NCBI RefSeq assembly: GCF_964213995.1
Contig: NC_135809.1
Coordinates: 109,368,001 to 109,432,000, forward strand
Source of the DNA: Mustelus asterias
Taxonomy: Eukaryota
DNA length: 64,000 nucleotides
Direction: 5' to 3'
Shown: positions 37,421 through 64,000 of the stretch, piece after piece
Position numbering within the stretch: the stretch's first letter is position 1
Layout of the letters: each line of letters opens with the position of its first letter
Translations under genes and position numbers: made by a program
Notes under the pieces: generated by a model
Databases searched by the model: none
What the model was told of the DNA's origin: nothing
Seen by the model: the letters and a program-made list of their open reading frames with translations, nothing else

Positions 37421-37749
37421 GTGGATGAGAACAAGGACTGCAGGTAACACAAACAGCTGCCCAAAGCACTGAGGGTTGGCCATTCAAATGGGAGAGTGAA
37501 AACGAATGTAGTAGTTGTTGACTGTACAGTTAGGAAGATAGAGACTCTTCTCTGCAGCTGAGAGAGAATCCTCAAGGTTATGTTGCCTGTTTGGTGCCAG
37601 AGTTAAGGACATCTCATGATTGAAGAGCAACTTAGGGTGGAATTTAATCCCTCAAACATGACAAGCAAAGCAGTAATAATCAAGCTTGAGAGACGCTTTG
37701 TCACACACAGTATCCTACCCAGACCCATGACAGACAATTGTTGGCAATA

Positions 37750-40929: not shown

Positions 40930-41380
40930 TTTGCTCATTCCGCCCACCCGGAATTGGACAAGTGACAGCAGCGCCCTCCAGTGGCAGAGGCGGCCGGCAT
41001 CCGGGGAAAGTGAAACTTGGGCCTCGCTGAGACGCTTAATGCTTCTGGAACCGAGCGACCGAGAGAGTGAGGGGCAATGGGCCGGACCGGGAACTTGTGG
41101 CCGTTTGTGGTGGCGCTGGTGACTCTGGCACAGCTTTCAGGTGAAGGACGAGACGGGCGGCGGAGGCGGGGAACGGGCGGGAGCGCACATTCCGGCGAAT
41201 TCAGGCCGGGCCTGGCGCGGGGCGATCAGGAACCGCAGCCCGCCCAGGGTGGGGTTTGTACCCGGGCCTCTTGCTGATGATTCCCCGAGGCTGCAGGTTG
41301 AGGACAGCGGCCGACGAGGTTAAAGTGAAAGCCACAAACGTTGAGCTCACCCTGATCGGGGGCCATTCGGCCCATCGTGA
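40930..41380 (+). promoter_or_regulatory. CpG-rich promoter/first-exon region of gene B with GC box, CTCF-like site and ISRE
   Basis: High CpG density in unique sequence; CCGCCC 40940-40945; CAGCGCCCTCCAGTGGC 40969-40985; GAAAGTGAAACT 41006-41017; AAAGTGAAAG 41322-41331. Confidence 0.7.
41077..41140 (+). CDS. NCR3LG1: Gene B leader (signal peptide) exon
   Basis: gcaATGG Kozak context; MGRTGNLWPFVVALVTLAQLS; CAG|GTGAAG phase-1 donor, in frame with the IgV exon (...S-ESKLEL). Confidence 0.78.
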
Positions 41381-42186
41381 CTGGTACAGCCCCTCCAGTT
41401 AGTCCCACTCTACCCATTTAGCCCCTTTTCCCAACAGAGTTCTACTTCCCCCCCCCCCCTCCCCAATTCAACTATTTAGCCAGTTTCCTTTGGACAGTTA
41501 TTATTGGGTCAACTTTAATGTCGTTTGCAGTTTCAAAGTAAGAGGATTCCCAGAGTTTTTTCCCTTTCCAAAAGGGTTGTAAATTTGACCTCCCCACAAA
41601 GCAGTGGAGGTCACTGAATGTAAGATAGACTTTTGATCTATAAGGGTGTTAAAAGGTTATCGGGTGGGTGGTCACCCATTGAGAGGCAACCGTACTGAGA
41701 TATGTTGGATTTTTCCCCATGGAAATCCTGTATGTCTCAGTAAGGTTGCCTCTCTGTCAAAACTACAATGAGTATAGCGCCGACCATTAGAAAATCCTCG
41801 GTATCAACCGAGTGAACCTTCTCTGTATTGCCTCAAATTCCAGTATTTATTTCCTTAGATAAGGGTACTAAAACTGTTCACAGTTTTCCAGGTGTGGCCT
41901 AACTAGTGTCTTGTATAGTGCCTTGCAAGTCTTCCTATTTTTATACTCTGCTCCTTTTGAAATAAAGGCCAACAGTCCACATGCTTTCCCGATGACCTGT
42001 TGAACTTGCGTACTAGCTTTTTGTGATTTATGCATGAGGACCCCCTCTAGCTGGAGCTTTCTGTCGTCTTTTTCCATTTAAATAATATTCAGCTCCTTTA
42101 ATCTTCTACCAAAAGTACGTAACTTCATATTTTCCTACATTATATTCTATCTGCCAAGTGTTTTGCCCACTCACTTAACCTATCTA

Positions 42187-43967
42187 AACACATAAAGGGC
42201 AAAACAGTAACAAGGGAGAGAGTAGGGCCACTTAAGGATCAACAAGGTCATCTATGTACGGATCCACAAGAGATGGGTGAGATCCTAAATGAATATTTCT
42301 CATCAGTATTTACTGTTGAGAAAAGCATGGATGTTAGGGAACTTGGGGAAATAAATAGTGATGTCTTGAGGAGTGTACATATTACAGAGAAGGAGGTGCT
42401 GGAAGTCTTAAAGCGCATCAAGGTAGATAAATCCCCGGGACCTGATGAAATATATCCCAGGACGTTGTGGGAGGCTAGGGAGGAAATTGCGGGTCCCCTA
42501 GCCGAGATATTTGAATCATCGATGGTCACGGGTGAGGTGCCTGAAGATTGGAGAGTGACAAATGTTGTGCCTTTGTTTAAAAAGAACTGCAGGGAAAAGC
42601 CTGGGAACTACAGGCCAGTGAGCCTCACATCTGTGGTGGGTAAATTGTTGGGAGGTATTTTGAGAGACAGAATCCACAGGCAAGGACTGATTAGGGACAG
42701 TCAGCGTGACTTTATGAGTGGAAAATCATGTCTCACAAATTTAATTGAGTTTTTTGAAGGGGTAACCAAGAAGGTAGATGAGGGCAGTGCAGTTGATGTT
42801 GTCTGCATGGATTTTAGCAAGGCCTTTGACAAGGTATCGCAAGGTAGGTTGTTGCATAAAGTTAAATCTCATGGGATCCAGGGTGAGGTATCTAAATGGA
42901 TACAAAATTGGCTTCTTGACAGAAGCCAGAGGGTGGTTGTAGAGAGTTGTTTTTCAAACTGGAGGCCTGTGACCAGCGGTGTGCCTCAGGGATCAGTGCT
43001 GGGCCCACTGTTATTTGTCATTTATATTAATGATTTGGATGAGAATATAGGAGGCATGGTTAGTAAGTTTGCAGATGACACCAAGATTGGTGGCATAGTG
43101 GACAGTGAAGAAAGTTATCTCCAATTGCAACGGGATCTTGATCAGTTGGACCAGTGGGCTGACGATTGGCAGATGGAGTTTAATTTGGACAAATGCAAGG
43201 TGATGCATTTTGGTAGATTGAACCAGGGCAGGATTTACTGAGGTAATGGTGAGAGTTACAGAACAAAGAGATCTCTGGGTACATGTTCATAGCTCCTTGA
43301 AAGTGGAGTCACAGGTGGACAGAGTGGTGAAGAAGGCATTCGGCATGTTTGGTTTCATCGGTCAGAACATTGAATACAGGAGTTGGGACGTCTTGTTGAA
43401 GTTGTACAAGACATTGGTAAGGCCACACTTGGAATACTGTGTGCAATTTTGGTCACCCTATTATAGAAAAGATATTATTAAACTAGAAAGAGTGCAGAAA
43501 AGATTTACTAGGATGCTACCAGGACTTGATGGATTGAGTTATAAGGAGAGGCTGAATAGACTGTGATTTTTTTCTCTGGAGCGTAGGATGCTGAGGGGTG
43601 ACCTTATAGAGGTCTATAAAATAATGAGGGGCATAGACAAGGTAGATAGTCAATATCTTTTCCCAAAGGTGGGGGAGTCTAAAACTAGAGGGCATAGATT
43701 TATGGTGAGAGGGGCGAGATACAAAAGTGTCCAGAGGGGCAATTTTTTCACACACAGGGTGGTGAGTGTCTGAGGTAGTAGTAGAGGTGGGTATAATTTT
43801 ATCTTTCAAAAAGCATTTAGATAGTTACATGGGTACGATGGGTATAGAGGGATATGGGCCAAATGCGGGCAATTGGGATTAGTTTAGGGGTTTTAAAAAA
43901 AAAAGGGCGGCATGGACAAGTTGGGCCGAAGGGCCTGTAAACATCTCTGAACCTCTATGACTCTATC
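42187..43967 (+). mobile_element. Relatively young CR1 LINE, 5'-truncated
   Basis: 322-aa uninterrupted RT ORF 42273-43241; 3' tail ctctatgactctat. Confidence 0.93.
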
Positions 43968-46900
43968 TATATTCCTTTGTAGACTTTTTTTGTCATCCTA
44001 ACCACTTGCCTTCCCATCTAGTTTTGTGTTATTGACAAATTTGGCAATAGTACCTTCACTTCCCTTGTCCAAATCATTGATATATATTGTAAATAATTAT
44101 GGCCTCACACTGATCCCTGTGACACTCCACCAGTTATAGGTTGCCATCCTGAAAATGTCCCTCTTATCCCAACTCTCTGTCTTCTGTCAGCCAACCCACT
44201 ACCTATGCTAATACACTGCCCCCAACGTCATGGGCTTTTACCTTATTAAACAGCCTCTTGTGCAGTATCTTATTGAATGTCTTTGGAAATTCAAGTATAT
44301 TACATCTACTGGTTACCCTTTATTTATCCTGCTTGATACCACCTCAAAGAATTCTAATAGATTTGTCAGGCATGATTTCCCCCTCATGAAGCCATGTTGA
44401 CTCTGCTTGATAATATTACGTATTCCTAAATGCTCTGCTATTACAACCTTTATGATGGACTCTAACATTTTGCCAATGGCAGATGTTAAGCTAACGAGCT
44501 ATAGTTAGCTGTTGTCATCGTCCTACCTTTTTGAATAAGGGTGCTTTCGTTGGCAGTTTTCAAATCCCCTGGGACTTTTCCAGAATTTAAAGATTCTAGT
44601 ACCAGTGCATCCACTATCTCTGTAGCTACTTCCTATGATATCCTAGGATGCAACCCATCAAGTCCAGGGGATTTATTGGCCTTTAGCCCCATTAGTTTCC
44701 TTAGTAATTATCTAGTGATCATTATTTTTTTTTATTTCCACCACCCCTTTTGCTCCTTGACATCTAGTATTTTTGGAATGCTATTAGTGTCTTCTACCGT
44801 GAAGACTGATGCAGAATATATCCTGGTTCCCCATTATTATTTCCCCAATCTAATTCTCTAAGGGGCCAATGATCACTTTGGTCTCTCTCTTCTTTTTAAT
44901 ATATTTAAAGAAGCTCTAACTGTCCATTTTTATATTACTTGTTAGTTTACCCTAATAGTTTATCTTCTCCCTTTTTGTTCTTTTTTTGATCATCTTTTGT
45001 TTGTTTTAAAACTTTCCCAATCCTCTGACTTACCGCTAATCTTTGCCATTTTGCATGCTTTTTCTTTCAGTTTAATGCTATTCTTAACTTTCTTGGTTAA
45101 CTACAGCTGATTTATATCCTTCGTAGAATCCTCCTTCCTTATATTTGTTGCGAGTCACGAACTATTTTCATAAATGTCTGCCATTGCTGATCAGTCTTTT
45201 CTGACAAACTCCTTTCCCAGTCCGCTCCAACTAACTCTGCCCTTATTCCTTTGTTAATTACCCTTATTTAAATTTAGCACAGTTGTTTCACGCCTTCAAA
45301 GCAAGGGGATTTGAATATAGGAGTAAGGATGTCTTGCTGCAGTTATACAGGGCCTTGGTGAGGCCATACCTTGCATATTGTGTGTAATTTTGGTCTCCTA
45401 ATCGGAGGAATTGTTGCTATTGAGGGAGTCCAGCAAAGGTTCACCAGACTGATTCCTGGAATGGCAGGACTGACATATGAAGAAAGACTGGATCGACAAG
45501 GCTTGTACTCACTGGAATTTAGAAGAATGAGAGGGGATCTCATTGAAACATATAAAATCCTGAGGGGACTGGATAGGCTAGATGTGGGAAGAATGTTCCT
45601 GATGTTGTGGAAGTCCAGAACTAGAGGTCACAGTCTAAAAATAAGGGGTAAGCCATTCAGGACGGAGATGAGGAAGAACTTCTTCACTCTGAGAGTTCTG
45701 AACCTGTGGAATTCTCTATCACAGAAATCAGGTGGGGCTAGTTCGTTAGATATGTTCAGGAGGGAACTGGATGTGGCCCTTGCGGCTAAGGGATCAAGGG
45801 GTATGGAGAGAAAGCGGGAATGAGATACTGAGAGTGCATGATCAGCCATGATCATATTGAATGGTGCTACAGGCTCAAAGGACTGAATGGCCTACTCCTG
45901 CATCTACTTTATATGTTTCTATGACCCAAGTTTCTCACATTCAAACTGAATGGTAAATTCTACCATGCTATGGTCACTGTTTCTTAGGAGTTCTTTTACT
46001 CTGATATTGTTTATTAAACCTGTCTCATTACACATCAGATCCAAAATACTCTGATCCCTGTTTGGATCCACAACATATTCTTCAAAACTGTCCCGAATAC
46101 ACTCTATGAATTCTTCCTCATGGCTACCTCTGCCAATTTGATTTTCCCAATCCCCATGAAGATTAAAGTCACTTATGATTAAAGTACTACCCTTTTTGCA
46201 TTATCTTCTGATTTTTCTCAGTCCTACATTATAGCTACTGTCTTCCCCTTGTTATTTCTTGCCTCCACCCACATGGATTCTACATCTTCCGATCCAAGAT
46301 CTGTTTTTTGCTATTGTACTTATTCCATCTCATACTAACAAAGCTTTCCTTCCTGTCTGTCCTCATGAAAAGTCACATACCCTGATTATTTAGTTCCCAG
46401 CTTTGATCTCCTTGTAACCACATATCTGTAATGGATATAAGATCATACCCATTAACCTCAATTTGTGCCATTCATTCATTATTTTGTGATGAATACTATA
46501 TGCATTTAACTAAAGAACCATTAATTTTGCTTTTTTTTACCACCCCACACCCCCCTTACCCTATTTGCTGCTGCTGTTATGTTTGTACGTCCTCTCCCTT
46601 CCTGTCCCACTCTAGGTATCATTACCTAAATAGCAACCTTGCGATGCTGCCATTTCCTTTTGCTTTGTAAGCCTCCCTTATCCAGAACGATTTCCCAGAC
46701 CCCCCACCCCACCGCGCGCACACATTTAGTTTAATGTCCTCTCTACCTTCCTAGTTATGTGGTTTGCAAGAACACTGGTCCCAGCACGGTTCAGATGCAG
46801 GCTGTTCCAATGGTACAGCCCTATTTTCCCCAGTACTGATGCCAGTGCCCCACGAACCGAAACCCACTCCTCCCAGAGGAGTATGGTCAAGCCTTGTGCC
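43968..46900 (-). mobile_element. Older minus-strand CR1 (also ~41700-42186), with nested plus-strand CR1 3' end at ~45291-45923
   Basis: Reverse-complement RT/APE/ORF1 motifs; nested piece encodes FRTEMRKNFFTLRVLNLWNSL. Confidence 0.8.
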
Positions 46901-47719
46901 TTTATTGAATTGCCCAAAAGCTCAGGACAAAAATGCTTCCCTGGTTGCTTTCTGCATGGCAGCATCGACTTGCCCACCAATCAGCACCCTATTCTCTTGT
47001 AGTATAAATTGTGATTATTATTTGAAATGTGCCATTCTTGTGTTTGTCCTGTGAGTGCAAGACAGAAAGCTTCAGCAACATGTCTCTCTCTTTATTGATA
47101 CTCAAGTTCTGTCCTGCCAAACAGCTAGTTGATGTTAGGACAGTTGACCAAAAGCTTGGCTAAAGATGCAGGTTTGTAGGACCATCTAAAGAAGGAAAGA
47201 GAAGAGGTTTAGGAAGGAAGTTCCAGAGCTTAAAGCTTAGCCAGCTGAAAGCATGGCCACCATTGATGGGGTGATTAAAATTGGGGCTGAACAAACGGGC
47301 AGATCTGGCAGGCTGCATCGATCTCAGATGGTTTCAGGGATGGAGAAGATCAGAGAGGTAGGAAGGCCCTGGTGGGATTTGAAAATAATGAGAATACCTC
47401 GCCTTGTTGAACCAGTGTCAGCAAGCACAGGGATCAGGTGAGACAAAGGGTAAACGGGATTGGAAAAGGGCAGTGAAATTTAGAATGAGCTGAAGTTTAT
47501 GGAGGTTGGGAGGTGGGAGAATGACCAGGAGAGAGCATTGGATAAGCAAATGAGGGTGGAAGGAATAGGAGGTTAGATGAAGCAATGTGCGAAGAGGCTG
47601 ATGTAGAGCTGTTAAGCTGGGATGGTCTTTTTACATTCTTTAGTACATTGAAATAAATGTAGACACGGTCTTGTCTGGTAGACACTAACAAAAACAACCT
47701 TCTATTATTAAATCTGCAG

Positions 47720-48073
47720 AAAGCAAGTTGGAATTGAGAGTGAGTCAAAGTCCTGTGGAAGTAAATCATAATGAAAATGGTCTCCTGCTGTGTGAAATCG
47801 CTAAACTCACTGGGGCGACATTGAACTCGACGAACTTGGGCGTATTATGGACAGTCACTCGTGGCACTGAAACATCAACAGCCTTTTCCTACGCTTCTGG
47901 AAATATAAAGGAAGCATGGCCAGAAGCTGAGCTTTTGGAAAGCTCCATTCTAAATGGAAACATGTCACTGTTGCTAAGACATGTCACATTTAAACACACC
48001 GGACAGTATAAATGTGAAGTTGTTATTCCACCAAATGATAAGGCCTTTAAGATAGTGAAGCTTGAGATTTTAG
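47720..48073 (+). CDS. NCR3LG1: Gene B IgV exon, B7-H6/NCR3LG1-like
   Basis: aatctgcag| acceptor, |gtaagc donor, phase 1/1; LLCEI...LNSTNLGVLW...GNMSLLL...GQYKCEVVIPP. Confidence 0.88.
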
Positions 48074-49727
48074 GTAAGCTGAATTATGTGCAGTAACTGT
48101 AATTTTTATAACTTGCAGTGTAACCCAATGCCAGCAGTTTCACATTTAAGTTTGTCTTTATAGCTTTTGGAAACGTAATCTGGTGGAGGGAATGCCCTTA
48201 GTTATAAAAGCAAACTGCTGCAGATGTTGGAAATCCTGAAACGAAAATGCTGTAAATGATCAGCAGGTCAGGTGGAATCTGTGGAGAGAGAAGCAGAGTT
48301 CTTTTCATCAGAATGGTTTAAAAAATAAATAATTTTTACCTAGCGTTTAATGCTTTCTGACCTGATGCGTGTTGATATCAAGCTATGTAATTTAAATATG
48401 TTGTACATCAATTAGTTGAATCAATAGCAAGAGTAAAAGTTAAAATTGGAAGTATTGGCTGTGTAAGACAGCATTTTGAGAAGGAAATAAAGAACAAGTG
48501 TATGTTTGGTTGAGGAAGTGGCACTTGCCTCAAATAAGCACATTGTTGCCGAGGGATAAACACTTAACTACTGTTAAATATGATTAATTATCTGTAAGAG
48601 CCATTGAAGTATTTTTCACAATTGGAACTGAAACAGATTAAAAGCCTGCACATACATAGTAAGGCTTCTCTGAAATTTCAATGTTGCTCTTTATGAAGAA
48701 AGAAGGAGCTTACATTTATATAGTTCCTTTTACTTCTGGAAGATGTCATTCATTCAGTTATGTTGAGTCTGCAACATAACAACAGGCCTTTTGGTCCACC
48801 TGGTCATGAAACCTTTTTGTTATGTTGAAGACAACTATCACCCTTAGCTTCTCGCTTCTAGAGAAAAAAGCCCAACCTGTTAAATCTTTCTTGATAATTT
48901 TGCAGTTCTGGTACCATCCTTATGAATTGTATTGACACCTTCTCTGATGGCTGTATATCCATTTTATAATATGGAAACCAGAACGGTGCACGGTACTCTG
49001 GGTGGGGTATAATCACATTTCTATGGAAGTTTAAGACTGTTTTTCAACTGTATTCTTCTATAAATGAATCCCAGTACTGGATTTGCCTTTTTTAATAGCC
49101 TTATAAGAGTTGCTTCTAGTGATTAATGTATCTGAACCCCATAGATTCCTTCTTCTCTACCTCATTTCCACTTATTATCCAGCCAGTATGTGGCCCCCTT
49201 ATTCTTCTTGCCAAAATGCACCAGCTCCCACTATTGCAGGCAAATTAATTTCAGTGATCTATTTTGTTAATAGTTTATTGATGTCATATATTTTTGTCAC
49301 TTCTTCACTGAGATGTCTGCAGCTTCCACTTTGTTGCCTTCTGCAAGTTTTGGAATTGTACTTTGGTTCCAGAGTCCAAATTGTTAATGTAAATGGTGAA
49401 CAAAGTGGTCCCAGCAGTGACGAGCACCACTTCCCATCTTTTGCCAGTCTGATTAGCTACCCCTAAGCCCTACACAATATGTTCTCTTTGGCCATCCGCT
49501 CGGCCGTGTGTTCAACTCTCTTTTTAAATATAGGAATCACGCCAGTTGTGCTCTATTTCTCTGGCAACATTCCATTTACAAATTATTTTTTTAATATACA
49601 TAGCCAACAGTGCCTCTGCTATTTCTTCACTAATTTATTTTAGCACGCTCATATCCAACCTAATGCATTACTGTTCAAGTGTAGCCACAGTTATTAGTGA
49701 CACTAACTGTATCCTTTATTTTGGCAG

Positions 49728-50054
49728 CACGTCCTACAGTGACTGTGATTTCAGAAAATATCGTGGAAGTTGGCACAGGGGGAGAGATGGCCTTGGGTTG
49801 CCAGTTAAGTGATTATTATCCTTGTGACAGCAGTGCTGAATGGTTTCAGACAACCCCATCACAAGGAGAGCCAAAATTATTAAAGGACATTTGCATTGCC
49901 CCGCCAGTCAAAAACCCTGATGGAACATGTAACATAACCACTGAAGTTAGGTTGGAACCTCGTGTAGAAGACATTGGCAGCACTTTCGAATGCCGTGTCA
50001 CACATAAGACGTTTTCCGAGCCTCTCTCTGTAAAAGCTTCGGTGATTTTGAAAG
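49728..50054 (+). CDS. NCR3LG1: Gene B IgC1 exon (membrane-proximal ectodomain)
   Basis: ttttggcag| acceptor, |gtcagt donor, phase 1/1; GCQLSDYYP...W...KNPDGT...FECRVTH. Confidence 0.88.
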
Positions 50055-50669
50055 GTCAGTTGCAATGACAAATGCAAAGTATAACATTTTTTTTATTGAA
50101 AAACACTTCAGCGTTATCCAATGTACTGCAGTTTTTACTTCTTGGGGAAACAACTAAATCAGAAACTTTTAGGTGGATTTGTTTGATAACGACAGCTAAT
50201 GAATTTTGAAATTTCTTGTGTTTATTAAGATACATTTTTACAAAAATGTTAATATGTAACTCAATCAACTTCTTTCTATTGATGTGATCTAATTAGATTA
50301 CTTATATATTATGAATATTTTGTTACAGTTCTAAGCATTTGGGAGGTTTATCAAATTCATAAATATGTATTTTTTAAAAATAAGATTAGCGTTCCATCTA
50401 ATGAGTTGAACACTTTTTCCATCCAAGCATCTATTTCTGACCGTCAGATATGTCTTGATGACCGCATGATCTAGAGAAAGTTTAATTGATTTCAATTTTC
50501 CCCTTCATTACCTGAACAAATCTTTTTAGTGGAAAATGATCCTGTGACCATTGTTTCCGAGACTTGGCTCCAATCTTACCTAAGATTTTTTACATAAAGT
50601 TGCAAATTATATACAGCACTGAAAGAGGCCATTCAGCCAACTATTCCGTTGGTGTTTATAACCACACTG

Positions 50670-51975
50670 GTTGTAAACTGGAGTAATTCACACTGGTTTT
50701 TTCAGTGGGAGTTCACACTAGAATCTCCCACACTTTGTGCAATGCAGAGGCCACCAGCGTGAATATCATTAGATTTCAGGGCGCGGGGCCTATTCCCGCC
50801 TGAGTGGCTGAAATCAGCGTGCCTCTGCGCATGCGCAGTGGCTCCAAACTGTCAGCCTTCCTGTTGCGAGCCAGCTCAGTCATTGGCCAGCCCTGGGAAC
50901 CCACAGTGCTGCCCCCCCAACCCCCCCCACGGCCCGATCGTGGGCCCTCCGGCAATTCCCAGGCCAGCCTCGAACCCCTTTCCCGTCCTGGATGGCCCCG
51001 ATCTCCAACCCCCCACCCGCAGTGTCAATACCCCCCAGCCCGCCCGATCTCCAGCCCCCCCCCCCCCGCCAAAACAAATTCACCCCCACCTCCCCCCAGC
51101 AGTCCCGACCTGCCCCAGTCAGTCTTGATCGCTGGCCTCCCTCCGGCCCCTATCAATCCCCATGCAGAGTGGCAGCGGAACCCCCCACCAGGGCACACCC
51201 CCCTATAGGCCCTATCCCCTTGGCACTGCCCGATGTCTGGTGGACAGTGTCAAGGTTTCCCATGGGCACTTTGCCCCTTGGGCAGTGCCAGGGAATACAG
51301 GCTGGCATTGCCAGGGTGCCCATACCCAGGGGGCACCACCCCTCACCACCCGACCCCCTGGGGGGGCCCCAGTTGCCCCCCACTTCCCTCCTGCGGGGTT
51401 GGGCCGCCAGTTCCCCGAAAGTGGGGAGCTAGACTGAACCCTGCTGGAGTGAAATACTGGGGTGGTATAGTGATTAGCTGCCCCAGGGACCCGGGTTCGA
51501 TTCCCGGCTTGGGTCACTGTGTAGAGTTTGCATGTTCTCCCCGTGTCTGCATGGGTTTCCTCCGGGTGCTCCGGTTTCCTCCCACAGTCTGAAAGATATG
51601 CTAGTTGGGTGCATTTACCCGAGCAGATGCTGTAATATAGCGACGAGGAGAATTTCACAGTAACTTCATTGCAGTGTTAATGTAAGCCTTACTTGTGACT
51701 AATAAAAAAAACTTTAACTTTAAATACTTCTTGTGGGGTGGGAGATGCTAATGGGCCCTCTAATAGCATAAAAATGACATTAAAATAAGATGTAAAGTAT
51801 TTACCTGGTGTTCCTGCCGGTTTCCAGTGTGAATCAGATGGCGCCAGAAATCCAGCGCTGGGAGATGCGCACGCGGCGGGAATGCATGCGTGAATCCTAC
51901 ACATGTCTTGATGTGAGATTCTCCCACCACGCAGCGCTAGAAAATTAGCATGGCAGGGTGGGAGAATTGCCCCCA
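50670..51975. mobile_element. GC-rich non-autonomous Harbinger-like element with nested HE1 (~51460-51720)
   Basis: Ends gagaattgccccc; motifs shared with 29700-30493; HE1 body and tail. Confidence 0.55.
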
Positions 51976-52871
51976 GTGTCTCCATTTCTACCTTGTCCAA
52001 CTGATCTGTAATTTTGAAGACCTCTATCAGGTCACGTATAAGTCTTCCGGTTTCCAAAGATGATGGCCCCCAAGCTATTCAATATTTCCCCGATAATCTC
52101 TTAGTTCTGTACCATCCTTGTAAACCTTTTTTTCCCCACACTTTCTCCCATAATTGTATGTCTCTTTTACTAGTACATGACCAGAACTGTACACAGTACA
52201 CGGAATGCAACCTGACCAGGTTCCTATACAAGTTTAACAAATTCTGTACCTCTAGAAATAAATCCCAGAGTTTTCCTTACTTTTTAAATGCTTTTTGTTG
52301 CAATGCTGTTTTGAGCGATTTGTTTCCTGAGATCCCCTTGTACTTCTATTCCATTGTGTTTCTATGACTGTAAAGTGCGGATGACGTTTCTGTTTTTTCT
52401 TCGCAAGTGTACCTCATTTATTGAGGCTAAAGTTTATTTTTAACTACCTGGTCTGCAAATATTCCAATATCTTCTCTAATTATGTTGCAGTATTTTTCAG
52501 TGTTAGCTTTGCCCTCTCGATGTTTGGTATCAGTTGCAAGTTTTGATCTTAAGTTATTTGTTCCCAATCCCAAAACATGAATGTAAATTATGAATAACAG
52601 TGATAATAACAGTGGTCTCAGCACTCATCCTTGTGGAGCACTGCATTTATGTTACAAGTAACCAGTTTTCTAAGTAACACAACTGGGGTACAAACAATAC
52701 AAGATGTTTGGGTGTGAAAATAAATGCCAATTAGTTGTGAGCACTGGCTGACCCAGAGCTGTGCTAAGTATTTATCTACTATACTTTATCCTATTCTACA
52801 ATATTACACGGGGTGAGTAGTGGTACAATTGAAACCAGTTGTGTGAGAAATATGAAACTTTTCTTTTACAG

Positions 52872-52988
52872 AAGCAGAAATCCGTCTGTCAACATCATCA
52901 ATAGTTGGAAGCGTGATTGCAAGCATTATTATTTCTGTTGCCGTAATAGCACTCATAATTTTCCTCTTTATGCGGTTCAGATATAAAG
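52872..52988 (+). CDS. NCR3LG1: Gene B transmembrane exon
   Basis: cttttacag| acceptor, |gtaagg donor; 117 nt, phase 1/1; EAEIRLSTSS-IVGSVIASIIISVAVIALIIFLFM-RFRYK, a ~24-aa hydrophobic helix followed by a basic stop-transfer. Confidence 0.88.
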
Positions 52989-53589
52989 GTAAGGCTGCAT
53001 TTTGGGGGTTGTGTGCCACTTTGGACAGTTTAGGGAATAACCTTGAGAGTAAGATGACACCAAAGGAAATTTGGGTTATGGACTGGGGAGGGAAGCTGTG
53101 CGTTGAGAACTTTTACTGCTGGTTGGTTGCTGTTATTGCAACAAATTTGTGCATCTTCTGGTTAACCAATGGTATCTCAAATTTGCTAGGATTTTTTTTT
53201 GCTTCCGCTTGTGGCAGTTCCAGTCAAATTTGTTTGCAGGCACATTGGCTTTGAAATCACTCCGTAGGCTTGGAATACAGATACATAATTGTTTCGCTAT
53301 TGCTACAAAGAAAAGAGAAACTGTTGAAGGTTTTTGTCTTGCACTCATCAAGATAAAATCTCAAGAATGCCAAATTTCAAAGGGAACTATAATTTATCAT
53401 GAAGAAAGAGTGCCGATTGATTGGCAGGTGAATGTTGATTGTTGGATGTGTCGCCATGGAGAATGCACCGATTAACAGTTTGCAAGTTTTCAGTTAAATT
53501 GAAACTAGCCAAGTTGATTCTGCTCACGGCGTTTCCATGAGAATACCCCAGAGAAATGTTGCACCCCTCACCCCCAAGCTTTTCTTTTG

Positions 53590-55720
53590 TTGAAAAAAGT
53601 GCAATGCCTGGACATGTTATTTTTGTTTACAGAGGACATGACCCTCTGTGATTGTGTGAATAGCTGTAGTTTCTGGTAAGCATAAGTGAGCCCCATTGTA
53701 AACTCCACCCCCCCCCCCCCCCAACAGATAACCTTGAAATGGTTGTTATGAATGGTTGAAATAGCACAGTTTGGATTGTTAAATAAGTGCTGCCCGATTC
53801 CGGAATTATATTTAATGTTCGACCCTGTTTTCTGAGTCCTGCAAGCACTGGCTGGTTGAGTGCAGTCCATACTCTGCCTTTTGAGAACAGCCAAAGGTAT
53901 GTGCTGTTTGATATGATCCACCAGATATTGGAATGTAAGGCCTGTATTCCTGGCATTTCACTGGCACAGGAACTCAAGTCACATTACTCATTGATCTTTT
54001 TGGCTTGACGGCAGCATCCTGTTAGTGGTGAATACCACTCGTTGCTACTGCATGGTAGTGGCTTGAAACAGCTAGCTTCACCTGTTGTTCAAATTCTTGC
54101 GATACCTTGTCCTTCCAGGGCACCAGAATTGTTAACCCTGGGGCCTATTCATGAGTTTGTCAGCAAGCAATGACGTGATCAGGGTAGCCAATTTCCTGCA
54201 GGAAAGCTTTGATGTGGCCTTTCTTGGCATCAAGATTTCTTGAGCACATGGCTTGGGACTTATTACTGACGTTGCCAAGAAGACAAATCTTGTAGGGTCC
54301 AGAGCTGTTGTGTATCAACGTGGATATTCACCAGAGAAAGTACGCTTGTAGAAGTAGTAGTAAAAGTAGGTAGTAGACAACTCTTGGCAGATTTCTCAAT
54401 TAGAAAATCGAGGAAAGGAAGCTCATTAGAATGTTCTACTTTAAAGGTGTATTTGAGTGTGGCATGGAGCCCATTAAGATGTTTAAGGAAATTCTTACCT
54501 GCAGCTTCAAATATAGCAAATGTATCATCTACTTCTCAGAAGTATGAATGTGGTAGATAGTTAGGGGTCATTCTCTTAAAGAAGCATTTCTCCTGGAAAC
54601 CAACAAAAATGTTAGCAAGAGCTGGGCCTGGAAGTGATAAAGTTGAACTCAGATGCACAAGTGGCTGGGTTTATAAGTTCAATGAATGTTGTGGGGGTTT
54701 TATTGAATTCATAAATATGTATTTTTAAGTTTGAGATACATTCCATCTAATAAGTTGAATATCTCTGACCTTCAGATATGTCTTGATGACTGCACGATTC
54801 TTGAGAAATTTTTCTATTTTTCGCTTCATTGCATGGACAAATCTTTTTAGTGAAAAATGATCCTGTGACCGTTGTTCCCCATGGTTCACTGCATCCACGT
54901 TTATATAGGTTGCCCAAGATGCACAAAAATCTTGTGCATTTTCTAAAAATTCATTTATAGGAAGTGAGCTTTGGCTAACCCAGTGTTTATTTCCCATCTC
55001 TAATTGTCTTCAAAAAGGTGGTGATGAGTTGCCTTTTTGAACCGCTGCAGTCTCTGATGTAGGTACACCCACAGTGCTGTTAGGGAGAACATTCCAGGAT
55101 TTTGCCCCAGTTACAGTGAAAGAACAGTGATATTTCCAAGTCGGGGTGGGATGTGATTTAGAGGGGAACTTCCAGATGACAATGTTCCCATGTGGCAGCC
55201 ACTCTTGTCCTTATGGATGGTAGCAGTTGTGAGTTTGAAAAGTGCTGCCTAAGGAACCTTGGGTGTGTTCTGCAGTGCATCCTGTAGAAGGTACACACCA
55301 CTGCCACTGTTGGTGGTGGCAGGAATGAATGTTTGTGGAAGGGATCCCAATCATTGTCCTGGATGATGTCCAGCTTCTTCAGTGTTGTTGGAGCTGCACT
55401 TATCAGGCAAGTGGAGATAGTCCATCACACTCCTAACTTGTGTCTTGTAGATGCTGAATAGACTTTAGGGAGTCAGGAGGTGAGTTACTTGCCACAGGAT
55501 TCCTAGCTTCTGACCTGCCCTTGAAGTCACTGTATTTAAATGGCTACTCTAGTTTCTGGTCAATTGCAACCCCCAGAATGTTAGTAGGAGATTTAGAGCT
55601 TTATGCGTTATCTTGACTGGTTCAGCACAACATGAATTGGCCAAATGGTTAAGTGAGTTGCTGCGACCAATCCTGAGTGAATTTTCTGCATACGCGATAA
55701 ATACTTCACCTTCATAAAGA
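53590..55720. mobile_element. Penelope-like retroelement fragments in both orientations, with a LINE 3' end inserted at ~54948-55590
   Basis: Minus: SGIGQHLFNNPNC and GPALANIFVGF; plus: PHGSLHPRLYRLPKMHK...TGSAQHELAKWLSELLRP. Confidence 0.7.
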
Positions 55721-56035
55721 TTAACAAGACCTGATGAGTGCAAGATGAAAAGCCTTTACAACAATGCTCCTGGCCAGCGACCATCATTATTTTTGTTGTT
55801 TCCCATTTGTTCTTTAATGATCTATTATATTTTGAAATTTCCTCTGTGCTCCATTACCAGAGATCTGATCTGCCTGTCTAGCACCCTTTCCTGATGCTCT
55901 TTAAATTTATCCTCCACATCTTGAAGCTTCTGAAATAAAAGCAAAATACTGTGGATGCTGGAAATCTGAAATAAAATGCTGGAAAAACCTTTCTGAATGA
56001 TCCAACTTGAAAATGCTTTATTTCTTTATTCCTAG

Positions 56036-56455
56036 TTGCACCAAACGTGTCACAAATTCAAAGACCTGTGCAAGTTGTACACAAAGAACTTGCAGAGTTT
56101 GCATGCCAAGTGTCTGGATATCGACCCAATGTTATTACTATCAGCTGGTATTTGCAGAGACGCAATGACAGTGAAAAGTTGATCGCTGAATGGCAAGAAG
56201 ACGACATATTCCTTTTCCCTTTCATCACTGACAGGAAACGAGAAAGGACTGGTGAAAGGAATGAAAATGATGTGGAATGGAAAGTCAAGGCAGTCAGTTT
56301 TCAGAAAAATGATGATGGAACATTCAGCATTTCCAGCGTTCTTGAGGTTTATCCTGACATCAATGTGGACAATAATGCACAAATCATATGTAAAGTGATG
56401 CATTCATCTGACAGTGAAGGCATCATTAGAAAGATTGACTTACAAATTAAGGGAG
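56036..56455 (+). CDS. Gene B post-TM IgC1 exon 1 (predicted cytoplasmic)
   Basis: ctttattcctag| acceptor, |gtaagc donor, phase 1/1; FACQVSGYRP...ISWY...KNDDGTFSISSVL...IICKVMH. Confidence 0.86.
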
Positions 56456-58747
56456 GTAAGCTTTTAATCAAAATCCACTATTCCGTTAGGTAGAACATCT
56501 GGGCACTTTCCAGCCTCCGCTGTTTTGTGATCATATTAAATGTTGCAAGCCCAAGACATGTATCCTAGATCTGCCACTTTTGAGTTTTCAAATTAATGAT
56601 TAATGATATTTGCAGCAACCTTTTATGGATGTCCACATGCTTCTTGAGTTGAATGTTGCCATGGTGTTTCAGTGAGTTACCTGAGAGTGGGCCTCTTGAC
56701 AAAGTTTGACCTCCTCATAGAGATGACAGTGTTAAAATTACATGTTGCTGTAAAATTATCCATCTAGAATTCTGTCCGAGTGTTTTTAAGTTATATGATT
56801 ACTAACTTAGGAAATAAAGCTGTGTGAAATTGAAAAGGTAAAATGGAGGGACAGCTGCACTGAAATGTTCAATATAGCATCAATAGACTAGAATATATCT
56901 GGAACCAAGGCTGTGAAAGATTGTGGAGGGAGTGGGGGAGAATTATAGCAATTCAGCAGAGAACAGAATGGGGCCTCAAGAAAAGTCTTTAGTCAACAGT
57001 TAACACAGACATGGTATAAAACAAGTCCCTTTATAGTTCAATGTTTACTCTTCTAACCCTAATGCCAAAACACAGTCCTATAGATTTTTTTCCATTAATA
57101 GCATTATGATTTTTTTAATTAATGACACAAATTAGGAAAGGAGTGTTCTACCTTTAATTATATATTTTTAAAAGGAAATAGTATAGACTTCAATATCATT
57201 TTGTAACCATTTTGCAGCTTTTCTGGCCCTTGCACCCTTTTCACCTGCTCATTTAAAAAATATTTTGATTTTCTATCACACTCTAACTCTAGTTTTGTCA
57301 TACACCTTTTCAGTTTATCTTTTACCTCCACTCCTTCCTTTGTTGCATTGTTTTGAGCCTCATGTAACATTTTGAAAAATCTTCACTGCTGATCTATTTA
57401 CCAACTTAAAATCATACCATCGTATTACCCAGTTATTCTTAATTCTCTGAGATGTTGACATATTTCATCTGCTGGCTTATCTTTACTATTTGGTGGCCTA
57501 CATCAGTACACAGAAGCATTTGTCTTCCTTTCCTTAACTGTATCCATATAGATTTTGTTCTAACCTCAGCCTTTAAAATATCCTTGCATTTTAACAGTGG
57601 GATAGAATGCTTAATGCACACTTGACCTCACTTTGTTCCTTCTGCATCTCTCCTGAAGAAGTTTAACCAGGAATATTAAGTTCCCAGTTTGTCCAAACCT
57701 TAAATTATTTTGATTATAGCTGCTATATCATATCCATAAGCTACCAGTTCATTCAGTTTGTTTTGACCACTTCGTCCATTCGTCTACATACCACTCAATC
57801 TTGAGTCCAATTTTCTCTTGGTTTATTGGCCTTTTTTCTTTTTCCTAGTTATAAGTTTTTGTTATCTTTTTATTCGTTTTGCTTCTCATTACCTCAAAGT
57901 CCCTTTCTCGTCTAACGTTTTATCATTGCATTTTCCCAACTAAGCCTTCTACTTCTACTCCAACAGCTTGTCCCCCTCTAATCTCAAGTTTATTTTTTTT
58001 ACCACTTCCTCAACATACTTGTTATATTCTTCCTGCTGATCTATTTACCCTCTTCACAAGGACGTTGGTGTCACTTTGGATGGGATGAAGGCTCCTTGGC
58101 TTCAATTTGCTCCCTTCTGTGGCTTTGGTGCTCAAGTTGGACACGCTGTCCGTTTTCAAACCTATTGGCTTTGGTTTTTAGCCATAAATAAAAAGCTATT
58201 TTATTGATAGACTAGGAAATAACTGGATTGTTGGGTGTTTTATATAAACGAATATGAGGTTATTTATCTGATTTTAATCTGCTCGAGGTGATTCTCAGCA
58301 AATAATGCAATTGAGTTATTGGAACTGCCCCTTTTTGCCTGCCTCACCCTTCTCTCCTTGTATTCCATCACACTTACAATCTCCTGTTTCTGTCACTGCC
58401 CTGGAGTCAGAGACGAGATTCTGACCAATTCTTTTCCCCATTAGCAAAGGAGTCTAGAATTTTGGAGCAATTTCGGGCTGGGAAAGCTGTTGAGGCTAGG
58501 TCGGTTTGAATATTTCAGAGTTGAGATTGATAGATTTTTGTTGGGCAGGATTATTGAAAGAAAGCATTGTTAAATAATGTCCTTTACAATCTCATGACAT
58601 GCCAAGGCTCTTTACAACCAATGAAGTACAATTGAACTATAGTCTCTGTAGTAGTTATGAGTTATGGAGTCAAGACAAGTGGATGGAGTATATTATGTGA
58701 AAAGTGAAGTTGTTCACTATGACAGAAAGAATGAAAAAACAGAGAGT

Positions 58748-59050
58748 TAAGTTTAAAGTTTATTTATTAAGGTCACACGTAGGCTTACATTAACACTGCA
58801 GTGAAGTTACTGTGAAAATCCCCTAGTCGCCACGCTCCGGCGCCTATTCGAGTACACTGAAGGAAAATTTAGCATGGCCAATGCACCTAACCACGTCTTT
58901 TGGACTGTGGGAGGAAACTGGAGCGCCCGGAGGAAACCCATGCAGACACCGGGAGAATGTGCAGACTCCTCACAGATAGTGACCCAACCAGGAATTGAAC
59001 CCAAGTCCCTGGCGCTGTGAGGCAGCAGTGCTAAGCACTTTGCCACCAAT
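58748..59050 (-). mobile_element. HE1-type SINE
   Basis: Reverse-complement head and tail. Confidence 0.85.
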
Positions 59051-59059
59051 CCACCCCGT

Positions 59060-59730
59060 TCATTACTTAAATGGCTGCAAAATCCTGAGATACAGAGGGA
59101 TCTAGATTTTCTAGCACATAAGTCACAAAACATTAATATGCAGGTACAGCAAGAAATTAAGAATGTTAATGGAATTATATCCTTTATTATAAGAGGAATT
59201 GAACATCAAAATAAGGATTTTATGGTTCAGCTGTAAAGGATATTGATGAGACCTCATCACAACTAATGTGTTCAGAGGAGGTTTACTAGATTGATACCAG
59301 GAATGAGTGGGATGTGCAATTCGGAACGTTTAGACGGACTGGACTTAATTCCCCTGGAATTTAGAAGATTGAGAAGTGAGCTGAAGATTCTAAACAGTTT
59401 TGACAAGGTGTTGGTGTAAAGCATGTTTCCTCTTGTGGTGAGTCTAGAACTAGGGAGCACAGTTTTAAAATTAGGGGTTGCCCTTCTAGGAGTGAGATGA
59501 AGAGAATTTTGTTTCTCTGAGGGTTGTGTGTTTTTGAACTCTGTTTCAGAAGAGTCATTGAGTACCAACTTGAGTACCAAAGCCACAGCTGGGTCATTGA
59601 ATGTCTTTAAGATGGAGGTTGATAGATTTTTGTTAGGTAAGGAAATCAAACCAAAGATTATTGGGCGTAGATGGGAATATGAAATGTGAAACGTAACAGG
59701 CTTAAGGGGCTGAATGGCCAACTTCTCCTA
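59060..59730 (+). mobile_element. Old CR1 3' fragment
   Basis: CR1 C-terminal and 3' UTR motifs. Confidence 0.7.
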
Positions 59731-60116
59731 TATGGAGTTAAGCTGGAGAACGCCGATATCTAATTGGATGGTGGAACAGGCTTACGTTGCTGGTCCCATA
59801 TTTCCAATTCCGTTCTGAGTGACATTATCTTTTTGTTATGCCTGTCCTGAATTTGGAATAGCATTGGTGGCGGGTCGGGGGATTGGTACATGTAAAAACA
59901 AACAAGAGCAGCAGCATGGGTTAGGATGCAGAAGATAGAACAGAGAGCTGATCACTTGTATAACTTACAGAAAACTGAAAACGCTTAAGATAATGGACAC
60001 AACATTGCTTAATACATAAATAGATAATATCCTTTAATTATAAAAAGATGAACCAATAACATTTATCTTGAGAAGTTGTACCATTAAAACTGAATGCTTT
60101 GTGGTTTTTTTTTCAG

Positions 60117-60479
60117 TTCCTCCTAAGTTGGCGAACATAATTAAACCTCCAGTCGTGCACCATAACAATTCTGTGATGCTGACTTGTCCGATAAATTTCT
60201 TCAAGCCACATCCTCTGAAGATCATATGGTATAAAATAATAGATGGAGAGAAAATCCCTTTGCTGAAGCACAATAATGGAGCTGAAGAGAATTTCTATTT
60301 GAACAAATATACCCATTCAATGATTAAATTTGATTATCCTGACTACACTCACAGTGTCTGCAGCATGCTGCTCTTTACTGCAACAATCCAAGAAGATGAA
60401 AACAGTCAGTATTCCTGTGAAGTTGGACACATTGGTTTGAAAGATCCAGTGGAGAAGTTTGTTCAACTGAATGCAAAAG
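60117..60479 (+). CDS. Gene B post-TM IgC1 exon 2 (predicted cytoplasmic)
   Basis: ttttttttcag| acceptor, |gtaaca donor, phase 1/1; LTCPINFFKP...IIWYK...SQYSCEVGH. Confidence 0.86.
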
Positions 60480-62756
60480 GTAACAGAAACGCGGTTCTTG
60501 ATTTGCTGATTCTCTTTTATAATGTATTGGTGCCTTCCTTTCTCTAACATTGCTACGATGAATTTCAGTATGAGGGGATAGAACAAACATCTATTCTGGG
60601 CATCTGTTGTCAGGATTAAGCATTTCCAAATGTTTAATTGAATGGATGTGAGCAACTATTGCAAATTTGACCACTTCTTATGTTAACCTTCTGTGGCCTT
60701 TCTGTGAGAAAGTATTCCTTGGATCCTAGACCATCAGGTGTTGAGCTGACTCCAACTTTGCTTGTGTAGGATGTATAGGGCATTAAAAGGGGGAGATGAT
60801 CATCTGTTTTTTTCTTTGAATGTATTTAAATCCGGAGATGAAAGCATAATGTGCTAAATCATGATACTACCGTATTCTAGACTTTTAGATTGCAGATAAC
60901 CTCCATAAATTTGTATGAATCTAAGTTTATTAAAAAATTTAGTCCAAATTTCATAAAGAATTATCCTTGTAAATACAACATATGGAGTACTTTTGTACAT
61001 CATCGGAAGAAAAGGGCTGATGCTACACTTGGGGTGTGAAGTGTTTACCCTTGACATATGAAGCAAGACTGGATCAACTGAGCTTGTACTCACTGAAATT
61101 TAGAAGAATAAGAGGGGTTCTCACAGAAACATATAACATCCTGATGGGACTGAACAGGCTAGATGCAGTAAGAATGTTCCCGATGTTGGGGAAGTCCAGA
61201 ACGAGGGATCACAGTCTTAAGAATAACGTCTATTGATGTTGCAGTGAATTTTCACAACAGGCGCACCCAGAGTTTTATTTAAAGGATGATGTTGATGAGA
61301 AAAAGTTGGTAAGTGAGAGTTCTGTCCAGGATGAAAGCCAGATTGTTCGTGGTGGAGGTCAGAAGTGGCATTCCAGCATGTGCAGGTCGCTTGTGTGTAT
61401 CCTACGTGCTTCCTTCAGTGCTGATGTCTGTATCAGCAGTGAAATGTCATGGATGTAGATGGACATCCTGGAATTTGGTGGAAGGCATGTCGCTGTATAG
61501 ATGTGAAAAAGGTAGTGCTGCAGAATACTGCTCTGCCTCCTGGCCCTGCAGTTGCTCAAAATTCCAATTCCAGTAAGGCAGCTCTTTTTCAATTTATTGT
61601 AATTTATTCTACTATCTATCACATATTTTTCTATTCAGATTTCCCATTTTTTTAATAATCCAGCTTCATGAAGCTTTTGCTTTCCTTGCACGTGGTGAGG
61701 TTCCACTTTCTGTCTTCACTGTTCCATTAGATACATTAGCCTTGTGCTCCTTTTTTGACGGCTTGTTCTTAGTATTAGTTACTTTCTTTCATTTCGTCAG
61801 ATCTTTATTGCATTGATATTTGTGAGAACTTGCTGTGTACACGGTGATCTTGGACATTTAAGTTCACATTGCTCAGCCTGCCATCCATAAGGAGTTGAAA
61901 AACATCAAAGAATGTTAAAAGTGTGCTGACCTTTCTGGGAAACTGCAGCTAATATCCATGCAACTGTTGTTGTGCAACCCTGAAGGACAGAATTGTGGGC
62001 GCGTGCAACATAAACCCATATATCATCACTGATCCAACAGCAGAGGTCACTGGCTTCGACCTCCAACAAGACAGTGGATGGCACTCAACATTGTGAGTGC
62101 CCAATAAGGGGCAATCTGGGGTGCGATTGTGACCATCAGTTCCTGACAATGGAACGCATTGCAATAACCTTTCCACTAATATCTGTTGCAGGAGGCATCT
62201 CATTTCTTCACTCAGAAGCCACAGAATGGATAGTAAAACCAGACATCTCATTATAAGCTGTCCTCGTCATACAAGAGTAGTAATAGTGAAAAAAATGAAA
62301 AATTGTGATAAGAAAGCTCATTGAGTTGGAACTAATGCCCTTACATAGAGTTGATTCTATACCTTAACTTAGAATGGTTAATGTTGATGGAACACAGTGG
62401 AAAATGGTATTGCAGAATCTACTCCCTTCATCATTAAGAGTCCAAACCTGAAATAATCACATCTCTTCTTTTCACAGCTGCTAGTGGACCTGCTGTTTAT
62501 TCCTAGTGTTTTCTACTTTCAATTCCAATATGCCATCTCTTTTACGTTTTGTTGTAAATTATTCTATCAACATCACTAAAAACATACCATCAAGTCTTTA
62601 TTGCATTGATGTTTGTGAGAACTTGCTGTGCACAAATTGGTTGCCGTATTTCCCAGTTACAATAATCAGTTGGAAAGCATTTTGATGCTTTGAAAAAAAA
62701 TTCCTTTCCCATTCTGAATAATAATTTATCTCCTCCTGCACCCCCCCCCCCCCCAA

Positions 62757-63330
62757 CTGTCTGTGAGTTAGGAAGTCTAGGATCCAGTTGCAGAGGGAGG
62801 AGCTGAGCCCGAGGCCACAGAATTTGGAGATGTGTTTTGTAGGAATAATGATGTTCAAGGTTGAGCTGTAGTCAACAAATAGGAGTCAGACATAAGTGTC
62901 CTTGTTATCCAGGTATACCAGGGTTGAGTGTAGGGCTAGGGAGATGGCGTCTGCTTTGGACCTATTGCAGTGATAGACTAACTGTAGTGGATCCAGTCAA
63001 TTGGGTGGCACGGTGACACATTGGTTAGCACTACTGCCTCTCAGCACCAGGGACCCGGCTTCGATTCCTGGTTTCGGTCACAGTCTGTGTGGAGTTTGCA
63101 CACTCTCCCCGTGTCTGCGGGGATTTTCTCCCGGGTGCTCCGGTTTCCTCCCACAGTCCAAAGACGTGCTGGTTAGGTGCATTGACCCGAACAGGTGCCG
63201 AAGTGTGGCAACTAGGGTAATTTCACAGTACCTTCATTGCAGTGTTAATATAAGCCTTACTTGTGACTAACAAATAAACTTTAACTTTCTGGAAGGCCGG
63301 AGTTGATCCGTGCCATGACTAACCTTTTCT
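62757..63330 (-). mobile_element. Rex-Babar fragment with nested HE1 (+) at ~63003-63288
   Basis: Homologous to ~36270-36545; HE1 head, body and tail. Confidence 0.78.
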
Positions 63331-63589
63331 ACACATGCCCATGGACACTGTTTGACATTTTATACAAATTTACCATTTCCTATTCCAATATCTTCTCGGC
63401 TTGGTTGGTAGTGAATGTTGGAGATTCAGTACAGTAATGAGTACTGCACTACTGGCGCATCTTCTTTTGAATGGACTATTTAAGCGAGGCTTCATTCTTC
63501 TTAAGGTGGATGTTAAAGAGACTATTCTATTTCAAAGTAGAAAGGTAGTGTTCTGGCCATTATTGAAACTGGAGAGCTCTTTTCTTTTT

Positions 63590-63770
63590 TATTCATTCGT
63601 GGGACATGGGCATTGCTGACTGGCAAGCCCATCCCTAGTTACCCAAGGGCAGTTGAGAGTCAACCACATTGCTATGGCTCTGGAGTCACATGTAGGCCAG
63701 GTCACGTAAGGATGGCAGATTTCCTTCCCTAAAGAATGTTAGTAAACCAGATGGGTTTTACCAACCTTCG
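63590..63770 (-). mobile_element. tRNA-derived SINE fragment, family of 727-1035
   Basis: Reverse complement of the shared body and tail. Confidence 0.7.
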
Positions 63771-63857
63771 ACCAATGTTCCATATTGCCAATATTGGAGA
63801 TATATATGTAAATTTATGTGTACCTGTACTAATGATCTACTGATTTATGTTTTGCAG

Positions 63858-64000
63858 CTTTTCCTACTCTTAATGCGATCATCAGTGAGCCAAGGAATCC
63901 TGTGATTGGAAAACAATTGACTTTGACCTGCAAAGTGCATTCATTTTACCCTAAAGATATTACTGTTCGATGGCTGAAAAATGAAGATGTTATTACGGAT
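63858..64000 (+). CDS. Gene B post-TM IgC1 exon 3, truncated by the window end (not in ORF track)
   Basis: gttttgcag| phase-1 acceptor; AFPTLNAIISEPRNPVIGKQLTLTCKVHSFYPKDITVRWLKNEDVITD, a C1-set CxVxxFYPxxIxVxW motif. Confidence 0.86.

Follow-up and report, generated by a model that had tools for sequence, protein, structure and literature searches.

We analysed a 64,000-nucleotide stretch of the genome of the shark Mustelus asterias (C9:109368001-109432000, where C9 is contig NC_135809.1), hereafter the window, and also read the stretches downstream of it. At the right-hand end of the window, on the plus strand, lies a gene for a B7-H6-like membrane protein with an array of C1-set immunoglobulin (Ig) domains after its transmembrane (TM) helix. 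Exon 1 (41077-41140) encodes a 21-residue leader with an ATG, a hydrophobic core and a phase-1 GT donor, and equals residues 1-21 of the database protein P0001. Exon 2 (47720-48073) encodes a B7-H6-like IgV domain (Pfam V-set, 1.1e-7), and exon 3 (49728-50054) an outer C1 domain with its canonical cysteine pair intact (C1-set, 1e-6). The single TM helix is encoded by exon 4 (52872-52988; 117 nt, phase 1-1), with a Kyte-Doolittle peak of 3.2 followed by the basic C-terminal flank RFRYK. Three post-TM C1 domains follow, each with both cysteines: D1 of 140 residues (exon 5, 56036-56455; C1-set, 1.3e-9), D2 (exon 6, 60117-60479; 1.2e-5) and D3 (exon 7, from 63858 through the window end at 64000 to 64166; 1.8e-8). 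We verified these positions in the window. Every acceptor is AG and every donor GT (six of each), the seven exons join at a cumulative phase of 1 throughout, and the joined frame of 596 residues has 0 stops within the window. A first-pass annotation, made from the sequence of the window, had described seven phase-1 GT-AG exons in one open frame, ordered leader-IgV-IgC1-TM-IgC1-IgC1-IgC1, with RFRYK after the hydrophobic helix, no stop or short tail exon after the TM exon, and the last IgC1 exon cut by the window end; each of these points holds.

Beyond the window the array continues on the same strand with D4 (65435-65761 in continued window numbering), in which the F-strand cysteine is replaced by isoleucine, the cysteine-free D5 (68333-68647), and D6 (69729-70036), which has both cysteines and ends in TAG. 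The first-pass annotation had counted at least three post-TM C1 domains and had left more domains, a second TM segment or a stop to be found past position 64000. The count is corrected to six, the stop follows, and no TM-like phase-1 exon, and so no second TM segment, was found from D1 to 10 kb beyond the gene end. The D6 exon finishes with the stop codon, and GTATGT follows directly (L001:6034-6042), which suggests a separate 3' untranslated exon. A white-shark isoform has a 14-residue extension at the D6 end.

The ten exons predict a protein of 967 residues with the architecture leader-V-C1-TM-6xC1 and no tail, and the chain is identical to P0001, a 967-residue database protein from the same contig. 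The TM segment spans approximately residues 259-281, the six Ig domains cover residues 288-967, and the C-terminus is a beta strand. Exon 3 and each of exons 5-7 singly score above the Pfam C1-set cut-off, and the whole protein has six C1-set stretches. The AlphaFold2 model of P0001 (67 sequences) has a mean pLDDT of 86.7 and shows eight beta domains plus a helix (residues 272-285), with the C1 array modelled as a continuous tandem without linkers. D1 carries a long variable insert that is modelled with low confidence. Eight histidines (H303, H410, H443, H494, H532, H635, H743 and H952 of P0001) are conserved in 70-93% of non-gap rows of a 67-protein alignment and lie in the A-B region of D1 and D2, in the middle of D2, and after the F strand. 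Those after the F strand are the usual C1 motif.

The part of the protein ahead of the array has the organization of the B7 family. A leader and a single TM segment with one exon per domain are evident in the sequence, and the ectodomain pair of a distal IgV and a membrane-proximal IgC is recovered by both Pfam and the structural model. The best sequence match of the V+C stretch in the PDB is B7-H6 (1.4e-19), and the ectodomain model matches B7-H6 (3pv7) with a target TM-score of 0.86 and an rmsd of 2.5 Å. Whole-chain Foldseek searches are dominated by multi-Ig chains, with titin I65-I70 at the top of the list only as such a chain (TMq 0.21), and were used for the ectodomain match only. Of the 11 NKp30-contact residues of B7-H6 that Table II of PMC3135353 gives, six are identical here (T59, G62, G83, V125, P128 and K130), and the FG loop has a one-residue insertion relative to B7-H6. 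We lean towards an ectodomain that would bind an NKp30-like receptor. Two observations weigh on the other side: one of the two main NKp30 contacts, Thr127, is a proline in the shark protein, and the V domain taken by itself gives slightly better matches to CD276 and CEACAMs than to B7-H6.

Other Ig families were considered and rejected. No PRY, SPRY or B30.2 match appears in the family scan, which argues against membership of the butyrophilins. SIRP proteins have V-C1-C1 outside the cell and an ITIM tail; the shark protein has one outer C1 domain and no tail. In tapasin and TAPBPR the TM segment lies near the C-terminus and is followed by a short tail (KKxx in tapasin), and here it lies at about residues 259-281 of 967. 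SIRP alpha/gamma, tapasin, Ig heavy chains and UrIg2 share C1-set domains with this protein, in tandem in SIRP, Ig heavy chains and UrIg2, but their C1 domains precede the TM segment; in UrIg2 the disulfide is kept in these domains (PMC12227049).

The same architecture is present in basking shark, white shark, two catsharks and a sawshark at 65-79% identity, as well as in neighbouring paralogs, and on these grounds we rejected chance open reading frames as its source. A search of 1.84 billion representatives returned 124 proteins at E < 1e-30. In a stored set of 158 proteins (the best 150 and 8 earlier ones), C domains follow the last TM segment in 125, no TM segment passes the threshold in 28, and 5 end with one; because the domain calls used profiles built from this shark cluster, they may overlook distant domains. 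Twenty of the 150 proteins were looked up by name, and these comprise sawshark, sawfish, electric ray, chimaera, coelacanth, three lungfish genes, caecilian, newt, three frogs, reedfish, gar, two teleosts, a lizard, a turtle and the marsupial Dromiciops, whose protein is annotated NCR3LG1. Models with the layout V-C1-TM-(C1)n include XP_078405429 (basking shark), XP_007885690 (chimaera), XP_014340773 (coelacanth), XP_043938021 (lungfish), XP_030056929 (caecilian) and XP_043828183 (Dromiciops NCR3LG1). In RefSeq and UniProt these models carry no annotation beyond uncharacterised, Ig-like, SIRP-like or NCR3LG1. The first-pass annotation had allowed that similar layouts may have been predicted for amphibians, and caecilian, newt and frog models are among the relatives. 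The layout occurs across non-placental jawed vertebrates, so whatever is new about it applies to the family and not to sharks in particular. With the post-TM part of the Dromiciops protein as query, 7 proteins were found among 1075 candidates, five from marsupials (query included) and two NCR3LG1-named turtle proteins; this search was word-limited and is no evidence that placentals, monotremes or birds lack such proteins.

The number of post-TM C1 domains varies from 2 to 12 across relatives. D1-D4 are collinear in chimaera, coelacanth, lungfish, caecilian and newt, and the marsupial keeps D1 and D3. Among the five shark orthologs, D1 identity is 53-74%, the lowest of any domain in three and tied lowest in one, and TM-exon identity is 74-87%. 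D2-D6 are 71-86% identical in the catshark and lamniform orthologs, against 75-83% for the ectodomain. A shorter V-C-TM-3xC1 type of about 600 residues occurs in a teleost, a frog and a lizard (P0054, P0064 and P0067; the lizard protein is annotated SIRP-like), and its post-TM domains group apart from both six-domain lineages described below. Four proteins with doubled ectodomains or two TM segments, such as V-C-V-C-TM... or C-TM-V-C-TM... (P0012, P0048, P0076 and P0096), are probably fused gene models.

For the questions of gene structure and topology we used the 85 of the 158 proteins that have one TM segment, V and C domains before it and at least two C domains after it, leaving out five near-duplicates of the shark orthologs. 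The tail after the last domain is 30 residues or shorter in 66 of the 85, and D1 begins within 15 residues of the TM segment in 68. The latter count bears on a very improbable reading in which annotation has merged a V-C-TM gene with a short tail and a separate C1-array gene. Such a merger would fit a frame that stays open for about 90 codons when read through the TM donor, and a loose scan of the TM-D1 intron that returned three leader-like stretches and two AATAAA signals; the TM-D1 join of this gene, moreover, is known from genomic DNA and gene models. However, two of the three leader-like stretches lie inside repeats and the third belongs to the read-through frame, the join recurs from chimaera to marsupials, and it is present in full in the chimaera record V9K7L7, whose accession series we take to derive from mRNA. 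A search with residues 225-440 of P0001 for shorter proteins spanning the join scored none of 241 candidates.

The protein is very probably a type I membrane protein with D1-D6 in the cytosol, as the first-pass annotation had proposed for at least three of these domains. All three post-TM domains within the window retain both cysteines, so the window alone did not prove this topology; support comes from the family-wide loss of cysteine pairs after the TM segment and from the positive-inside charge. In the 85 proteins the canonical pair is retained in 92 of 98 pre-TM C1 domains against 200 of 413 post-TM domains (10 of 423 post-TM domains are gapped and were left unscored). The core tryptophan is retained about equally (88/98 and 370/413), and the lost cysteines are mostly replaced by the core-filling hydrophobics L, V, I, W, F and Y. 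At least one post-TM domain without the pair is present in 79 of the 85 proteins. Tandem repetition alone cannot explain the loss, since 38 of 40 pairs are kept in four control proteins with ten C domains ahead of a C-terminal TM segment. The same asymmetry is seen within the shark cluster, where the pair is present in 6/6 outer C1 exons and in 10/26 downstream C1 exons. The part that follows the TM segment has the higher net charge in 79 of the 85 proteins, and glycosylation sequon density is greater before the segment in 76.

D5 illustrates a C1 fold without cysteine. It is modelled with a pLDDT of 88 and matches the C1 domains of MHC proteins and beta-2-microglobulin at Z of about 12, with an rmsd of 2.2-2.5 Å over 94-95 aligned residues. 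Its top structural match is a nectin-like domain, tied with the MHC and beta-2-microglobulin rows. Cysteine loss, charge asymmetry and the cysteine-free fold of D5 together make up the pattern predicted by a relaxed need for disulfides in a reducing compartment.

Several points weigh against a cytosolic array. About half of the post-TM domains retain the pair, including four of six in this gene (D1, D2, D3 and D6, with D4 and D5 lacking it), and both cysteines are kept at post-TM positions 2 and 3 in 67-69% of proteins, compared with 21% at position 4. The ratio of observed to expected sequons is 1.60 before the TM segment and 1.15 in post-TM C1 domains, the latter above chance (p 0.007), and because the extracellular control reaches a ratio of only 1.30 this test carries little weight. 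A further control, four unnamed TM-less V-C-C-C proteins picked by hand, has the pair in only 12 of 19 domains and allows no clear reading. As the 85 proteins share ancestry, the Fisher p of 9e-19 for the cysteine comparison overstates their independence. The exon junctions are read from genomic sequence and database models, and the topology is a prediction. Finally, the TM exon is symmetric, and its skipping would preserve the frame. Skipping of this exon, or another route that keeps the array luminal or outside the cell, would yield a secreted V-C1-(C1)6 product, a reading we consider improbable. The 28 stored proteins without a TM segment by threshold include V-C-C... forms such as P0027 and P0034, as would be expected of it, together with fragments and unrelated Ig proteins. 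Cysteine loss and weak sequon enrichment after the TM segment, the presence of this segment in 130 of 158 models and the TM-exon identity among shark orthologs given above all speak against a secreted product.

The array appears to be old. We built a domain tree from 80 domains (74 from 12 named proteins and 6 Ig-like controls) over 114 alignment columns, few enough that many forks are weak. Position-specific clades nevertheless span sharks and tetrapods for D1 (98/94), D2 (97/97), D3 (99/92) and D5 (99/94), with weaker ones for D4 and D6; this clustering by position argues that the array is ancient. Within the D1, D3, D5, D6 and outer C1 groups of this tree, this gene and its sawshark ortholog pair with one lungfish protein and the caecilian protein and stand apart from chimaera, sawfish, coelacanth, newt and, for the domains that it has, Dromiciops. 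An ectodomain tree of 26 rows, built without human B7-H6 and containing two long branches and an unresolved lungfish A, contains a 96/95 clade of the turtle and marsupial NCR3LG1 proteins with five other cluster genes; this gene lies outside that clade and pairs with the caecilian protein (94/82). Grouping with NCR3LG1-named proteins was therefore not seen in the ectodomain tree, and the same split appears in D1 and D3. The two trees point to two six-domain lineages that likely existed before the split of sharks and bony fishes, with this gene likely an old paralog of B7-H6 proper. The B7-H6-like identity given by the first-pass annotation is thus upheld in that the gene lies inside the B7-H6 cluster, but a direct ortholog it likely is not.

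Human B7-H6 (NCR3LG1) and the shark protein share the leader-V-C-TM order, the ectodomain fold, six of the 11 NKp30-contact residues, and RPS13-like, PI3K-like and nucleobindin-like neighbours. They differ after the membrane, where the shark protein has six C1 domains and no tail, and human B7-H6, a protein of 454 residues in all, has a Gag-homologous tail with ITIM, SH2 and SH3 motifs, tyrosine motifs among them (PMC2715080). Since marsupials keep D1 and D3, the simplest reading is that a Gag-like tail would have replaced the C1 array later, in the human lineage.

The shared neighbours lie on the upstream flank, which contains an intron-bearing RPS13-family exon at 108.61 Mb, a PI3K-accessory-domain exon at 108.71 Mb and, at 108.86 Mb, an EF-hand exon that we take to resemble nucleobindin. 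The human gene order is RPS13-PIK3C2A-NUCB2-NCR3LG1. The linkage is that of a B7-H6/NCR3LG1 cluster, with gene names assigned from Pfam families and a motif. The nearest Kir-family match on C9 is 11 Mb away, so the far flank appears not to be conserved; a myogenic-basic-domain match lies 12 Mb away. In a profile search of 814 kb, all matches fell between C9:109.00 and 109.44 Mb, where there are 7 V exons and 32 C1 exons; the 190 kb beyond this gene gave none, and the gene sits at the end of the cluster with its seven B7-H6-like V exons. TM exons were found for four cluster genes and a broken one for a fifth (the most upstream gene lies outside the TM scan). Three neighbours have 4-7 collinear post-TM domains, one of them being the broken copy, and two have repeated D1-like exons. 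The latter two (C9:109016175-109059034 and 109155655-109175024) contain only tandem, widely spaced D1-like exons, in three and two copies, that have lost both cysteines and carry a B-strand tryptophan; they could serve as alternative or repeated single-domain tails. An orphan V exon at C9:109118136-109118531 has its first cysteine changed to serine, no C exon was found after it, and it is likely a relic.

The broken copy is a divergent paralog that shares the window; on the minus strand it extends leftward from position 28443 to a point some 28 kb outside the left edge of the window (C9:109.340-109.396 Mb). Its leader exon (28332-28443) is 97.6% identical to the leader region of an upstream paralog, and its IgV exon (14081-14416; Pfam V-set, 9.3e-7) and outer C1 exon (4003-4329; C1-set, 2.9e-10) also lie within the window, with a broken TM exon and four post-TM C1 exons to the left of it. 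The TM exon is split by an insert of about 0.9 kb containing two U2-snRNA-like pieces (Rfam) and SINE-like sequence, the D3 donor has AT where GT belongs, and three C1 exons have been lost. This paralog is an inverted duplicate of an upstream gene and likely a pseudogene. The U2-like fragments are repeated within the insert (L012:9083-9232 and 9411-9549, minus strand), and may mark a U2-targeting or U2-derived mobile element. Introns and spacers of the window (42123-43824, 5959-7719, 23418-24395, 35459-37602 and others) are filled with broken reverse-transcriptase frames and repeats, which we take to be LINE-like and SINE-like, respectively, and 63% of the 614-kb region is self-repeated.

What might six C1 domains do beneath the membrane? 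We slightly favour a cytosolic scaffold just below the membrane that would bind partners and couple cell state to display. The domain-family scan of the protein found no enzyme domains, and such ITIM-like hexamers as there are sit within folded domains and are missing in the basking-shark ortholog. With no enzyme domain, no tail, no conserved ITIM and D1 directly under the membrane, we chose a binding-rod model. The six domains would form a disulfide-independent, protein-binding rod that would recruit cytosolic partners and set the trafficking or clustering of the ligand, and so would likely control the display or clustering of the V-C1 ectodomain before an NKp30-type receptor. Butyrophilins (V-C-TM-B30.2) offer a parallel in joining a B7-type ectodomain to a folded domain that is cytosolic, as the array here is predicted to be. 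Inside-out sensing by BTN3A1 and BTN2A1, with B30.2 coupling cell state to surface display, serves as the working model, and the array would act in a like manner; the cytosolic module differs, being B30.2 there and a C1 array here.

A doubtful alternative is that the array is an inside-out sensor or decoy, which on binding pathogen proteins or stress ligands would cause the ectodomain to be shown to NK-like cells. The range of 2-12 domains, the birth and death of genes in the cluster (seven V exons, an inverted duplicate, repeated D1 exons), the low conservation of D1 with its low-confidence insert, and the position of the human Gag-homologous tail in the same place would all suit such a role. 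Against these stand the conservation of D2-D6 at about the level of the ectodomain in catshark and lamniform orthologs, and position-specific conservation since the shark/bony-fish split, which fits a stable host partner. An equally tentative extension of the sensor would have it license NKp30 recognition in an ancestral, two-sided B7-H6: C1 domains of the antigen-receptor type would have entered the cytosol before the shark/bony-fish split and lost their disulfides, the human lineage would have swapped the sensor for a retroviral Gag domain, and both the architecture and its gnathostome-wide history would be undescribed.

There is also a slim chance that the array is a redox or mechanical switch, in which retained buried cysteine pairs would stay reduced and, when oxidised under stress, would stiffen or unfold the rod. 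Stress oxidises buried cysteines in titin Ig domains, and titin is likewise a cytosolic tandem Ig rod with optional cysteines, though its domains are I-set and those here are C1-set and membrane-anchored. The linker-free tandem and the retention of cysteines at positions 2 and 3, compared with position 4, are in keeping with a switch; buried cysteines may, however, persist merely as core residues, and pairs are lost at every position, 2 and 3 included. The scaffold remains our preferred role for the array.

The genes are already in RefSeq, mostly as uncharacterised. Literature listings and abstract openings, a coverage that leaves out key comparative papers, gave no description of cytosolic C1 domains in B7-H6. 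Flajnik reportedly mentioned Ig domains in amphibian B7H6 tails in 2012, and we put the chance of some prior mention of the layout at about even. C1-set domains are taken as disulfide-bonded, extracellular or luminal parts of antibodies, T-cell receptors and MHC molecules. If the topology is correct, cytosolic C1 arrays kept across jawed vertebrates would break this rule, and the array would show what the B7-H6 tail was before its Gag-like human form. C1 folds that naturally lack cysteine, D5 among them, are also relevant to intracellular antibody scaffolds, and the layout raises a testable question for the family, namely which molecules bind the inside of an NK-cell ligand.

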